A stretch of DNA of 32,000 nucleotides from Candidatus Methanophagaceae archaeon (lineage in GTDB: Archaea > Halobacteriota > Syntropharchaeia > Alkanophagales > Methanospirareceae), in assembly GCA_003194425.1 (NCBI GenBank), contig PQXB01000001.1, positions 310,444 through 342,443 of the forward strand, in the 5' to 3' direction. The position numbers and the translations under genes were made by a program. The notes beneath the pieces are model-generated. The model had not been told where the DNA came from and did not search any database. It saw only the letters and a program-made list of their open reading frames with translations. The stretch's first letter is position 1; each line of letters opens with the position of its first letter. Below, piece by piece: positions 12,155-16,184 of the stretch.

Positions 12155-13231
12155 TTACACCCTCGCGGTCCTCTCGCGCACCGCAGCCACAATTATCGGC
12201 AACGCGATCGTGGCGTCGCAGTAAACCGTAACCGCCCGCGCGTTCGCACCGACCTTGCCCCACGACTTCGCTTCGTCCAGCGTCGCACCGCTTAATCCCC
12301 CGTTCTCCGGCGTCTCGGTGGTTATTTGAATCGCGTAGTCAAAGCCCTCTCGCTCTCTCTCTCGCTCTTGCTCCTCACCTCCGTCTCTCCCCTGCACCCG
12401 CGGCGGTGCGACCAGCGCGGTCTGGAAAATAAAGTTCTTAGGCACGCCGCCGCCGAGAATTAGCACCCCTGTCCGTTTCGCCTCGCAGAAAATATCCACC
12501 AACTCCTTCATATCCTCGAACGCGTCCACTCGTAAATTGCTCGTCTGCTTGTAAATCCAAGCGTGAAGTCCGATCATAGAATCCGCAATCGCAGGGCAGA
12601 ACACGGGCACCCCGCTCTCCGCTGCACTTCGTAAAATAGAATCCGGGTCCGAGAGGCTCTCTCCAATCGCTCTTGTCAGTTCCCTAATGCTGTACCGCTT
12701 CTCCCTCTCCTTCTTCTCCACCCTCTTCTCCCTCTCCTCTCTCTCCGCCCTCTTCTGACCGAGTTTTTCAAAAACGCCCCTCAAAAAATCCTCCAACCTC
12801 GCAAACGCCTCGTCACGCACAATTACATCGTAGATTCTGTCGCTCCCTTCGCCTCGCAGCCACACGTCGTCCACCGCTGCACCTGGGTCTGCGCCGCCTA
12901 CGGCTTCGCCTACGATTTTGTAGTGCCGCTCGCCGAGTGCTTCCAGAATGTCGTGCACGAGGTTTGCGCCCGTCGTTACCACCACATCCACGAGCCGCTC
13001 CCGAATCATCTCTGCCAGCACGGTTCGCATTCCCGCAGGAACTAACGCACCAGCAACACCCAGGAACTTTGTCGTCTTTTCGCCCTCTCCCCTCTGCAGC
13101 ATTTCCTCGTAAATGTCCACCGCCTCCGCCAACCTGCCGGCTCCGAAGGCACAGCCGCCCAAACCTCTCACAAGCTCGTCTACGCTCGTCTTCTTCCCGA
13201 TTTTCACGCCCTGCACTTCCTTTAGCCGCAT
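12155..13231 (-). CDS. dys: Deoxyhypusine synthase
   Basis: GAGRLAEAVDIYEEML, FLGVAGALVPAGMR, VVVTTGANLVHD, ILGGGVPKNF and the C-terminal YCDATIALPII are typical DHS motifs. It carries Glu/Arg/Lys-rich inserts (REEREKRVEKKEREKR; EQEREREREG). Confidence 0.85.
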   Translation of the reverse strand: MRLKEVQGVKIGKKTSVDELVRGLGGCAFGAGRLAEAVDIYEEMLQRGEGEKTTKFLGVAGALVPAGMRTVLAEMIRERLVDVVVTTGANLVHDILEALGERHYKIVGEAVGGADPGAAVDDVWLRGEGSDRIYDVIVRDEAFARLEDFLRGVFEKLGQKRAEREEREKRVEKKEREKRYSIRELTRAIGESLSDPDSILRSAAESGVPVFCPAIADSMIGLHAWIYKQTSNLRVDAFEDMKELVDIFCEAKRTGVLILGGGVPKNFIFQTALVAPPRVQGRDGGEEQEREREREGFDYAIQITTETPENGGLSGATLDEAKSWGKVGANARAVTVYCDATIALPIIVAAVRERTARV

Positions 13232-13278
13232 TCCCTATTGCTCTGTTTTTATTTTAGCAATTTATAAACAGATGTAAA

Positions 13279-14253
13279 ATGAGCATTACATTCAAGGAAC
13301 TTGCAAAGAAAGTGCTAAAAGAAGAAAAGAAGCCCCTTACAGCAGAAAAAATCTGGGAAATCGCAAGACAAAAGAGATATGACAAACTTGGAAATTTCAA
13401 AGGCAAAACTCCTTGGAGATCAATTGGAGCGAGAATTTATGTAGACATTAGAGATAACAAGCAGTCTCCCTTTGTTAAAATAGATTCCAAACCGAGAAAG
13501 TTTTTCCTGCGAGAATTAACAAGCAAAGAAGATTTGAGAAAAATAGAAGAAGGGGCGAACGTAGAAGTAGAAAGACCAGTAGAAGTAGAACCTACCGAAA
13601 CAAAATATTCAGAAAAGGATTTACACCCCTTCTTAACATATTTTGCTTATGCCTACCTTGGAGTGCACACAAAGACAATAAGTCACGAAAAATCGAGCAA
13701 GAAAAGTTACGCACAATGGTTGCATCCCGATTTGGTAGGTGTCTATTTCCCAATTGGCGAATGGAAAGACGAGGTTATAGATTTTGCTAAGGAAGTAGGC
13801 ACTAAACTTATCAGGGTGTACTCTTTTGAGATGAAAAAAGAGTTGACTTTTTCAAACCTGCGAGAGTCCTTCTTTCAAACTGTTTCTAACTCATCTTGGG
13901 CAAATGAGGGGTATCTTGTTGCTGCAAAAATATCTCAAGACGATGATTTTCTATCCGAAGTGAAGCGGCTGTCTGCTTCATTTGGGATAGGAATAATAAA
14001 AATTGATTTAGAAGATCCGGATTCATCAGAAGTTCTATTTCCTGCAAGATTCAAGAGCGAATTGGATTGGGAGACCATCAATAAACTGAGTACGGGAAAT
14101 CGTGATTTTAGGGAGTTCATAAAAAGGATAAAGATTGACATTTCCAGTAAAGAGGTGAGAAAAGAGAAATATGACAAGGTCTATGAAACAGAAAAATTAA
14201 AGGAGGATCTCAAGAATATTAAAGGAGGATCTCAAGAATTCTCGATTTATTAA
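13279..14253 (+). CDS. HARE-HTH domain protein with a C-terminal PD-(D/E)xK-like nuclease core (Mrr/type IV restriction-like); A/T-rich accessory gene
   Basis: The N-terminus FKELAKKVLKEEKKPLTAEKIWEIA...GKTPWRSIGARIYVDIRDNKQSPFVKIDSKPRKFFLRE fits the HARE-HTH winged-helix pattern. The C-terminal half has ordered E (EKDLHP), D (HPDLVGV), ExK (SFEMKKE) and Q..S (FFQTVSNS) motifs. Base composition and codon usage are clearly more A/T-rich than the flanking genes. Confidence 0.6.
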   Translation: MSITFKELAKKVLKEEKKPLTAEKIWEIARQKRYDKLGNFKGKTPWRSIGARIYVDIRDNKQSPFVKIDSKPRKFFLRELTSKEDLRKIEEGANVEVERPVEVEPTETKYSEKDLHPFLTYFAYAYLGVHTKTISHEKSSKKSYAQWLHPDLVGVYFPIGEWKDEVIDFAKEVGTKLIRVYSFEMKKELTFSNLRESFFQTVSNSSWANEGYLVAAKISQDDDFLSEVKRLSASFGIGIIKIDLEDPDSSEVLFPARFKSELDWETINKLSTGNRDFREFIKRIKIDISSKEVRKEKYDKVYETEKLKEDLKNIKGGSQEFSIY

Positions 14254-14254
14254 A

Positions 14255-14276
14255 TTTTATAAACGCTTTATAAACG
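14255..14276 (+). promoter_or_regulatory. Duplicated TATA element (ttttataaacg/ctttataaacg) upstream of tRNA-Pro
   Basis: The 11-bp unit is repeated in tandem with 10/11 identity. The proximal TTTATAAA (14267-14274) lies about 24-31 nt upstream of the tRNA 5' end. Confidence 0.6.
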
Positions 14277-14297
14277 AGAAAAACAAAACAGAGGGTA

Positions 14298-14370
14298 GGG
14301 GCTGTAAGGTAGCCAGGCATCCTCCCAGCTCGGGGAGCTGGTAACCGGAGTTCAAATCTCCGCAGCCCCA
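14298..14370 (+). tRNA. tRNA-Pro (anticodon GGG) with an atypical C at position 33; no encoded CCA
   Basis: Manual cloverleaf. Acceptor GGGGCTG/CAGCCCC plus discriminator A. U8 is present. D arm AGGT-AGCCAGGCA-TCCT with G18G19. Anticodon stem CCAGC/GCTGG with loop TCGGGGA. Variable loop is 4 nt. T arm CGGAG-TTCAAAT-CTCCG. A T8 terminator follows at 14371-14378. Confidence 0.75.
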
Positions 14371-14488
14371 TTTTTTTTAGTCCGAAGCACTAAATTCCAA
14401 ATAAAATCAAAAAGGCAAAAAAATAAAAAGAGGAGTAGTGCCTCTCCTCCTCTGCCCGATTTCTGCTCTGCTCTACTCTTACCCTTAC

Positions 14489-15994
14489 CTACCTCATTCT
14501 TTCAACCACTCTCTTCAAATTCTCCTCTAGTCCTGCTCCTGTTTCTGCTCCTGCTCCTGTTGCTGCTGGCACTGCTCCTGCTTCTCCTTTCCAGTACGGC
14601 ACGTAAGCCCACCACAAAGCGTCGCACTCGAAGACCTCGCCTCCTGCTGCGGCGTCCGAGAGCTGCACGTAGAACAAATTCCCGAACGGCTCGGCACCCC
14701 AGTTCGGAATCCCGAAACTGAACTCAAGGCTCTCGCTGTACTCCGCGGCGACCGACTTGGTCAGCACAGGCACGCAGACGCTGTACTCCGGCACTACCCA
14801 GAACCACTGGAATTCCAAACTGCAGTTCGTCGGGTTCGCAACGCTCACTGCAACTTCCATTTTGTCCCCGATTCTGTACTCTGTCTTGTCGGTCGCAACG
14901 GAAACGCTCGGCTCGCCGATTTCAAACGAGACCGTCGGCTCCGGGTCGGCGTGTTTGCGAATAAAAATCCAGTTTGCAAAACCTTCAATTTCCCCTGGGT
15001 GCCAAGCATCTGTGTTAAACTCAACAATGGGTGCAAATTTTGAATCACTGTCTTTTTGAATATCGTAGTCTTTGCTCAAAATATGGTGGTGCTCGTGGAA
15101 TCCCTCCAAGTGACTTGCATAGATTACTGTTTTTAATCGGTTGGGCTGAGTGAAATTAAAGCTGTATCCTGGATTATTGTCTCTATCTATATAAATATTG
15201 CTCCCTTTTTTCAGTTTAATAAGATAGGGCTTTTCGCTTTCGTATTCCAGACCGTATGCGAACACAGCCGTGAATTCTGTGTCTGTGTCTGTTAAGCTGC
15301 CGTTACCGAATAGCACACCCACTCCAAAGTTTTTATTCCACCAGTCCATCGGCATTTTCATCTCTGCTTCTACGACCAATGGGAACTTGGTGTCAAAACT
15401 GATATTTTTTGGTTTTAAAACGAAACTACCTTGAGTAGGTCTGTACGCTCTCAACCATCCATCGTCCAGAGAGAAATTTATCTCTGCGGGGTAATAGAAA
15501 TCGATGCAGTCATCGCGATCCCATGAAAAACCTTGCCAATTGTTTAGTGAAGAAGGACTGCTGAAATTGTCGAAGAACTCGAAGACCGCGTTACCTTTGC
15601 TCTCGCTCGCTGCTGCGGGGTTGCCCCAGCGCATTTTCAAAAAGACGCTCTCGCCCGCGGGCAGAACCGGCACGCGCACCCAAACCGCCCCTCGCTTCTC
15701 CACGCCGTCAAACTCCTCAAGCCAGTAGTTCAACTCCTGCCCTGCGAACGAAAATCGGAGGTCGCCCCCGTCGGTCTTCGCTTCGGTCGGGAAGTTCTCG
15801 CCCGACAAATTCACGAGAATCGGGTACTCGTGAAGCGTCGTTCCAGAGTTCTCGGAGACGCGGAGGGTCGTTGAGAAAGCCCAGTCGCCGCTGCCGAGCG
15901 GGGTCGCTGCCGCTGCTGCGGAGGTCGCTGCTAACACTACTGCCGTTGTCAAAAAAGCAATTGCCAGCACTTTTCTGCTTGTTTTTGTAGTCAT
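14489..15994 (-). CDS. Secreted DUF2341/LamG-like (concanavalin-fold) protein
   Basis: The start was moved to ATG 15994 (MTTKTSRKVLAIAFLTTAVVLAATSAAAA signal peptide) because GGGGGTGA SD lies upstream. Motif EYPILVNLSG...DGGDLRFSFAGQELNYWLEEFD...AVWVRVPVLPAGESVFLKMRWGN matches the DUF2341 pattern. A hairpin plus T-run follows the stop. Confidence 0.65.
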   Translation of the reverse strand: MTTKTSRKVLAIAFLTTAVVLAATSAAAAATPLGSGDWAFSTTLRVSENSGTTLHEYPILVNLSGENFPTEAKTDGGDLRFSFAGQELNYWLEEFDGVEKRGAVWVRVPVLPAGESVFLKMRWGNPAAASESKGNAVFEFFDNFSSPSSLNNWQGFSWDRDDCIDFYYPAEINFSLDDGWLRAYRPTQGSFVLKPKNISFDTKFPLVVEAEMKMPMDWWNKNFGVGVLFGNGSLTDTDTEFTAVFAYGLEYESEKPYLIKLKKGSNIYIDRDNNPGYSFNFTQPNRLKTVIYASHLEGFHEHHHILSKDYDIQKDSDSKFAPIVEFNTDAWHPGEIEGFANWIFIRKHADPEPTVSFEIGEPSVSVATDKTEYRIGDKMEVAVSVANPTNCSLEFQWFWVVPEYSVCVPVLTKSVAAEYSESLEFSFGIPNWGAEPFGNLFYVQLSDAAAGGEVFECDALWWAYVPYWKGEAGAVPAATGAGAETGAGLEENLKRVVERMR

Positions 15995-16184
15995 TTTTTT
16001 TTCGTCACCCCCTAATTTTTTCTTCCCCCTTGTTTTCTTCTCGCCTGAAGATAAGAGGAAGATAAGAGGAGCGTGACAAAGTTTTGTTATCTTTTCGTAT
16101 TTTTTCATCATGTTTAACATAAATATAATTTGTTTTGTCTCTTTAAATACTTACCTCGTTTTTATCTCTAAAAATACAAGAAAA

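Follow-up and report, generated by a model that had tools for sequence, protein, structure and literature searches.

An A/T-rich gene between dys and tRNA-Pro in an archaeon belongs to the HrgA/DUF511/COG2958 family of predicted nucleases and was acquired horizontally

What does a solitary, markedly A/T-rich gene encode that separates dys, the gene for deoxyhypusine synthase, from tRNA-Pro(GGG) in a methane-cycling archaeon whose genome carries mcrA, and how did it come to lie there? The gene belongs to a stretch of 32,000 nucleotides from Candidatus Methanophagaceae archaeon (the window, by which we mean the whole stretch of DNA that was analysed). An earlier examination of its letters and open reading frames (ORFs), hereafter the sequence-only reading, had described a 324-residue, horizontally acquired solitary nuclease with an N-terminal HARE-HTH domain. 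We find the observation to be real and the first reading essentially right, the ORF lying in a 1,066-bp gap between the two genes named, and we identify the protein as a new, intact member of an already described family, HrgA/DUF511/COG2958.

Family, fold and active site

Homologues of the window protein number more than 5,600 at 90% clustering and fall into 1,610 clusters at 50%, and at least 588 species-representative genomes carry the signature motif of the family, which spans Bacteria and Archaea. The protein is homologous over its full length to HrgA/COG2958 proteins and shares 60–68% identity with those named 'COG2958 family protein' by NCBI (65% in Thermosipho, 61% in Bacillus smithii), while more distant, plasmid-borne homologues are annotated 'HrgA protein'. 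Our comparison with annotated HrgA took in homologues from Helicobacter heilmannii, Vibrio and Clostridium, and the H. heilmannii HrgA aligned along residues 1–312, that is, the full length, with 34% identity (E = 1e-56). DUF511 (PF04373), typified by hrgA of Helicobacter pylori, was predicted in 2010 to join an N-terminal winged helix-turn-helix (wHTH) to a canonical PD-(D/E)XK domain, the nearest solved structure being 3dnx (PMC3045609), and it was listed together with COG2958 in a 2012 survey of PD-(D/E)XK proteins (PMC3424549); this literature describes its function as unknown. The suggestion of an uncharacterised solitary nuclease is thus right in that the gene is solitary and its function uncharacterised, but the family has a name and an architecture published in 2010 (PMC3045609).

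The window protein resembles HrgA of the H. pylori type in its length class (~310 amino acids), in the combination of wHTH and PD-(D/E)xK, in the invariant E, PD, ExK and Q residues, and in an SNSSWANxGYLV block. It differs from typical HrgA in being archaeal and in belonging to a subgroup with a recognisable HARE-HTH, whereas the Helicobacter and Vibrio proteins miss the Pfam model for that domain. PF04373 itself has apparently gone from the copy of Pfam that we used, because annotated HrgA proteins found no match to it either.

The HARE-HTH domain proposed for the N terminus was indeed recovered above the Pfam cut-off (Table 1), and Pfam reported nothing besides it on the protein at E up to 1. 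The ordered motifs claimed for the C-terminal half, E, D (HPDLVGV), ExK (SFEMK) and Q..S (FFQTVSNSS), are likewise present, and their E, D, ExK and Q residues are invariant or close to it among homologues of 33–85% identity. More specifically, in 74 sequences reaching down to 33% identity E112, D151 and E184 never vary, and conservation of K186 and Q200 is 90% or higher; all five residues are retained in the Helicobacter and Vibrio HrgA proteins.

An AlphaFold2 model built from 74 diverse homologues (mean predicted local distance difference test score, pLDDT, 91.5) agrees with the restriction-endonuclease-like core that had been proposed. Its helix at residues 112–127, strands at 130–133, 152–156 and 179–189, helix at 191–205 and strand at 210–218 follow the canonical alpha-beta-beta-beta-alpha-beta order, with D151 opening beta-2, E184 and K186 in beta-3, and Q200 in the next helix; the core topology, the D that begins beta-2 and the (D/E)xK in beta-3, all conserved, are those of the PD-(D/E)xK superfamily. 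We judged the geometry of the active site by where the residues fall in the secondary structure of the model and not by distances. The best structural matches of the nuclease domain (residues ~107–300) are nucleases of the restriction endonuclease (REase) type, led by PaqCI (Z = 9.7), 3dnx (Z = 9.1) and XisH (Z = 8.5), with AF1548 and NucS (both Z = 7.7) and Can2 (Z = 7.1) further down. PDB entry 3dnx (SPO1766), which we take to be a member of the MmcB-like family, is the best single-domain match, with 132 of 146 residues aligned, but it has no detectable sequence similarity to the window protein, and MmcB-like proteins are without the HARE-HTH and the C-terminal helices. As nearest solved structure it is also the one reported for the family (PMC3045609).

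Searching the PDB by sequence and by profile yielded no match at E up to 10; Foldseek gave weak PDB matches and significant viral ones (E down to 1e-5), the top ones being nucleases and some of them annotated as MmcB-like. An Atlas feature search produced PDDEXK_18, XisH and Mrr_cat with scores of at most 0.83, which are leads only and fit a nuclease fold. Residues 1–80 of the model form a winged helix, and its matches (Z = 6.8–8.7, the top ones 8.0–8.7) include linker histones, Polycomb-like/MTF2, I73R of African swine fever virus, FOX domains and the delta subunit of RNA polymerase.

Across the family, divergence is far greater in the N-terminal reader domain than in the nuclease domain, and among ten longer family forms that were scanned five had a second HARE-HTH, three had one copy and two had no Pfam match, with no further enzymatic domain in any of the ten. 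Because the reader is divergent and the longer forms add at most a second HARE-HTH, the pattern of the family is one of a constant cutter and a variable reader.

Such structural neighbours would also fit, instead of a defence enzyme, a housekeeping factor of DNA repair, recombination or transcription, i.e., a structure-specific nuclease related to MmcB, NucS or XisH, or a HARE-HTH protein akin to the delta subunit. The nearest structures include 3dnx, NucS, XisH and viral proteins annotated 'MmcB-like DNA repair protein', the HARE-HTH resembles the delta subunit of RNA polymerase (8x6g_E, 7f75_L), one homologue bears transcription terms of the Gene Ontology at NCBI, and sequence conservation is very high. 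We nevertheless consider a housekeeping role quite unlikely, given the patchy distribution, the foreign composition and the single-copy, inserted state of the gene, and given that the family, unlike control genes, is enriched beside restriction-modification (R-M) and defence genes and has one member inside a type I R-M operon (see below).

A foreign gene in the dys/tRNA-Pro junction

The A/T-richness and the deviant use of AAA, AGA, TTA and ATA codons had been judged by eye and are borne out by computation, the composition being distinct from the genome average. Windowed GC is 0.365–0.388 over the ORF, against ~0.54–0.60 in dys and ~0.54–0.57 in the first 400-nt windows past the tRNA, and the ORF lies at z = -3.1 relative to the mean of the genes in the whole 1.4-Mb genome (0.531, standard deviation 0.052). 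GC at third codon positions is 0.351 against 0.615 for the genome (z = -2.9), and just 24 of the 1006 genome ORFs of at least 150 amino acids, and 1.6% of 975-nt windows, are equally AT-rich. The codon shifts relative to the genome affect AGA (0.59 against 0.21), GAA (0.71 against 0.33), ATA (0.42 against 0.23), TTA (0.21 against 0.10) and AAA (0.60 against 0.47). There is one copy of the gene in its own genome.

Searches of 39 relatives, 24 of them from the same family, found no homologue apart from a weak match of 93 residues in one same-phylum genome (30% identity, E = 1.2e-4). By contrast, dys was found in all 26 genomes searched, that of the window included, and in 12 of 15 dys loci of relatives tRNA-Pro(GGG) is its direct divergent neighbour at a distance of 75–320 bp. 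The deviating GC, the absence of homologues from relatives and the empty junction in these 12 loci show that the gene is of foreign origin, and the horizontal acquisition put forward in the sequence-only reading thus stands.

Relatives have a single TATA-like element (TTTATTTATAACAGAG or similar) ~23–33 nt upstream of tRNA-Pro. In the window there are three copies of a TATA-like TTTATAAAC, one between dys and the ORF and two 3' of the ORF, and the third, at -31 to -23 of tRNA-Pro, occupies the TATA position seen in relatives. The genome has just 37 occurrences of the 9-mer and four of the 10-mer that includes the following G, two of the latter at the present locus. We infer that the mcrA-bearing archaeon acquired the gene as an ORF-sized piece that landed in a bidirectional promoter region common to dys and tRNA-Pro; duplication of the TATA-like element would then have left one to each of the two old genes and so kept both promoters. 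Separately, three tandem copies of TTTATAAAC with 12-nt spacing were seen outside the window, at 107691–107723 of contig C1 of the same genome.

The notion that the tRNA had served as the usual integration target did not survive. The gene is located on the 5' side of the tRNA, no att (attachment site) duplication is present, no repeat of tRNA sequence is found within 13150–14450, and there is no integrase, methyltransferase (MTase) or defence gene within ~10 kb of the ORF. Moreover, a tRNA or tmRNA lies within 1 kb of the homologue in just 3 of 60 loci. Tests for integrase, att repeat and tRNA fragment all being negative, we take the adjacency of the tRNA to be incidental and rule out tRNA-directed integration. 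Mobility with target-site duplication was also rejected as a feature of the family, as flanking repeats are no commoner than in controls: a common flanking substring of at least 9 nt was present at 5 of 77 loci, compared to 3 of 73 and 3 of 69 shifted controls and 3.6% of shuffles. At two loci (L056 and L090) the gene is flanked by exact direct repeats of 13–14 nt (GAAGTGAAGATTAT and TAAGATGAAAGAC), longer than expected from shuffled controls.

The nearest relative at the DNA level is a copy in a low-GC metagenome-assembled genome (MAG) of anaerobic methanotrophic group 1 (ANME-1), where the GC of the gene is 0.366 and that of the locus 0.386. The identity of 88% between the two copies is limited to the ORF, and their comparison gives a synonymous divergence (dS) of 0.45 and a ratio of nonsynonymous to synonymous divergence (dN/dS) of 0.15, so the gene has been maintained under purifying selection. 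In a quick maximum-likelihood tree (IQ-TREE) these two copies group together (support 100) and are joined next by two archaeal copies, one of them from Archaeoglobaceae (support 87); the tree mixes phyla thoroughly, with copies from Asgard and Halobacteriota placed among those of bacteria. A side observation from the same tree is that some family proteins are near-identical across phyla, namely L022/L023 (Nitrospirota/Bdellovibrionota), L082/L084 (Atribacterota/Syntrophaceae) and L032/L033 (Hydrogenedentota/Sumerlaeota), with terminal branches of 0.06–0.16, which indicates either very recent transfer between phyla or binning cross-talk.

Could the gene be a selfish, free-standing nuclease gene, a mobile ORF of the homing-endonuclease or R-M kind that gives its host no benefit and was placed by its own cleavage or by illegitimate recombination? 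Homology to the nearest relative that ends at the ORF ends, the scrambled phyla in the tree, the lack of a conserved neighbour (see below), and copies of a 9-mer of so few genome occurrences on both sides of the ORF would all agree with this, as would the report, quoted in PMC3045609, that in H. pylori recombination can exchange hrgA and hpyIIIR for each other. Yet flanking direct repeats are at control level across the family, the insertion contexts are too diverse for a single homing site, and no match was found by tblastn in 50,697 phage records. The dN/dS of 0.15 also speaks for selection on the protein, though selfish nucleases are constrained as well. On balance we hold the selfish alternative to be unlikely.

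Two features are peculiar to this copy. Its linker contains a 12-nt direct repeat, GTAGAAGTAGAA, at 13561–13572 and 13579–13590, which is private to the window copy and associated with an insertion of five codons that the ANME-1 homologue does not have. Near the 3' end, a 22-nt tandem duplication frameshifts the last codons and has swapped the usual C-terminus for an odd tail of 15 residues, giving 324 amino acids compared to ~309 in relatives. Both could be taken as marks of an inactive, decaying relic. However, the frameshift lies beyond the last conserved residues (Y298, D299 and L307), the catalytic and other near-invariant residues are intact, the ORF has no internal stops and, as said, selection is purifying, all of which makes decay a most improbable account.

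Table 1. Coordinates of the hrgA-like gene, its parts and its immediate surroundings in the window
Feature	Position	Strand	Remarks
hrgA-like gene (HrgA/DUF511/COG2958 family)	13279..14253	+	324 amino acids, GC 0.369
Inserted interval, dys start codon to tRNA-Pro 5' end	13232..14297		1,066 bp; 75–320 bp in relatives
HARE-HTH winged-helix domain, residues 4–74	13288..13500	+	PF05066, E = 4e-17, 62.8 bits against a cut-off of 25.9
Linker, residues ~80–108, poorly conserved, low model confidence	13516..13602	+	
PD-(D/E)xK nuclease domain and C-terminal helices, residues ~109–300	13603..14178	+	From model and structural matches
Codon for E112, acidic residue of helix alpha-1	13612..13614	+	Invariant
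Codons for P150-D151, 'PD' opening strand beta-2	13726..13731	+	D151 invariant
Codons for E184-M185-K186, 'ExK' in strand beta-3	13828..13836	+	
22-nt tandem duplication	14193..14236	+	Copies 95% identical; shifts frame after ~codon 312
TATA-like TTTATAAAC, copy 1	13261..13269		30–38 nt upstream of dys ATG; 10 nt before ORF ATG
TTTATAAAC(G), copies 2 and 3 (starts 14256 and 14267)	14256..14275		3' of ORF
Deoxyhypusine synthase (dys), left-hand neighbour, context	12155..13231	-	PF01916, E = 1.8e-98
tRNA-Pro(GGG), right-hand neighbour, context outside the inserted element	14298..14370	+	

Neighbourhood of the family and its candidate role

The sequence-only reading had asked whether homologues lie in defence islands. 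In a survey of 80 loci from many phyla, based on our own ORF calls, no partner gene was conserved: the best neighbour cluster occurred at 7 of the 80, with variable distance and strand. The 149 immediate neighbours are topped by ResIII, type IIG and type III R-M, Eco57I/N6 MTases, EcoRV, YhcG, AbiEii-like AAA_21, HepT, Fic, PtuA and PDC-S02. They matched 261 PADLOC families, as opposed to 103 for 149 control genes 6.5–10 kb away at the same loci, where the leading families are of a housekeeping or regulatory kind (glycosyltransferases, histidine kinases, PAS/GGDEF proteins and sigma factors). The HrgA family thus shows local enrichment next to or within clusters of R-M and defence genes. The copy in Clostridium butyricum, for example, has WYL/AAA genes on one side and two MTases and an REase on the other.

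On the Vibrio plasmid pVPS43 the gene order is hsdM-hsdS-HrgA-hsdR, adjoining SIR2/DUF87. This placement between hsdS and hsdR recalls cargo genes of type I R-M operons, such as PrrC. However, no such operon is present in the window, and members of the family do not share this embedding as a conserved trait. Unlike typical hrgA, the window gene stands alone amid core genes and not in an R-M locus, besides having the altered tail described above.

In H. pylori, hrgA takes the R position in the HpyIII system, replacing hpyIIIR (PMC3045609, PMC2588503), and MTases adjoin some of the homologues, as would be expected if the protein were a type II restriction enzyme of the classical kind, with an MTase that is encoded far from it or no longer present. 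We judge this to be highly improbable. No MTase is a conserved neighbour in the 80 loci and, as the earlier reading had noted, neither an MTase nor a partner gene adjoins the window gene, and no MTase lies within 10 kb; an unprotected type II REase would kill its host on arrival; and in some hrgA strains of H. pylori HpyIIIM is inactive (PMC3045609, quoting other data), which excludes a classical R-M partnership.

We therefore lean, with moderate confidence, towards an intact, horizontally acquired HrgA protein that acts in defence, most likely as a stand-alone, Mg2+-dependent DNA endonuclease of a type IV-like kind. In such a protein the N-terminal HARE-HTH would bind or read DNA, and a flexible linker would connect it to the C-terminal PD-(D/E)xK domain, in which E112, D151 and E184-x-K186, with Q200, would serve in metal binding and catalysis. 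The winged helix might aim the nuclease at a particular sequence or at a modified base, and foreign DNA would be attacked without a cognate MTase, the protein working alone. Fusions of HARE-HTH to nucleases in prokaryotes have been proposed to read modified bases (PMC4738411, PMC11037411), and in one study DNA containing N6-methyladenine was bound by the HARE-HTH of mammalian ASXL1 (PMC6591016). The winged-helix nucleases among type IV enzymes (DpnI/HhiV4I-type; PMC11037411) and Mrr are alike in having a winged-helix reader and a PD-(D/E)xK-type cutter in one polypeptide, in needing no cognate MTase, in standing alone and in being horizontally mobile, but the reader of the window protein is a HARE-HTH, with an extra helix in its HTH, and not a winged helix of the DpnI type. 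The specific suggestion of an Mrr-like enzyme failed by sequence, in that neither Mrr_N nor Mrr_cat (PF04471) was matched at E up to 1.

Several points weigh against the stand-alone defence nuclease that we favour. The window protein matches no family in PADLOC-DB 2.0 at E up to 1 and no NCBIfam model, and the genes within 10 kb of it encode core machinery (exosome, Hef, V-ATPase B, thermosome, ABCE1) and make up no defence island. Housekeeping genes are found among many of the homologue neighbours, and the enrichment test, which uses tallies of families and ORFs that were called crudely, is semi-quantitative. Conservation is unusually high for a defence gene (60–70% identity across domains), which could point to another, more constrained role. 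The HpyIIIM data from H. pylori bear on the R-M partnership and not on the action of HrgA itself, and in the literature searched we found no biochemical or genetic test of any member of the family. Lastly, full activity of the window copy is not guaranteed, because the 22-nt duplication alters its C-terminal tail. The defence role accordingly remains a candidate one.

Features beside the insertion and meaning of the family

Both neighbours of the gene have peculiarities of their own. The dys gene contains low-complexity inserts rich in Glu, Arg and Lys, e.g., AEREEREKRVEKKEREKR and EEQEREREREG, and BLAST matches in relatives cover ~310–340 codons, compared to 358 in the window. At position 33 the tRNA-Pro(GGG) carries a C instead of a U, and its anticodon loop reads U-C-G-G-G-G-A. 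This loop is identical in 10 of 12 relatives (loci L004–L017), and the other two, L013 and L017, have U33 together with a compensating change across the loop.

A second AT-rich stretch (GC 0.38–0.45) occupies positions 16000–17000 of the window, between the gene for a DUF2341-domain surface protein and the thermosome gene. It holds two small ORFs without Pfam matches (16110–16484 and 16465–16863), the latter overlapping tRNA-Thr(GGT) at 16741–16812 on the minus strand; the stretch might represent a further foreign islet of small size or merely promoter and terminator space. The surface-protein gene itself (14489–16120, minus strand) has a strongly mosaic composition, with a GC of 0.41 in the middle and 0.57–0.59 at both ends.

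The archaeal copy by itself adds little new biology, although it is a tidy natural case of horizontal insertion of a single ORF into a shared promoter and supports the view that no partner is needed for HrgA proteins to act, so that heterologous expression would offer an easy test. The interest of the family exceeds that of this single locus. Its members are common, have a clean catalytic site, lie preferentially near restriction and defence genes and are absent from PADLOC-DB 2.0, and the hrgA of H. pylori has served as a disease marker. A wider reading, to which we give rather less than even chances, is that HrgA/COG2958 is a widespread, cross-domain, single-protein restriction system missed by the defence catalogues, in which the HARE-HTH would read a modified base or short sequence, the MmcB-like PD-(D/E)xK domain would cut, and units consisting of the ORF alone could settle even in essential promoters. 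As it stands, the family is a candidate stand-alone nuclease that is apparently uncatalogued.

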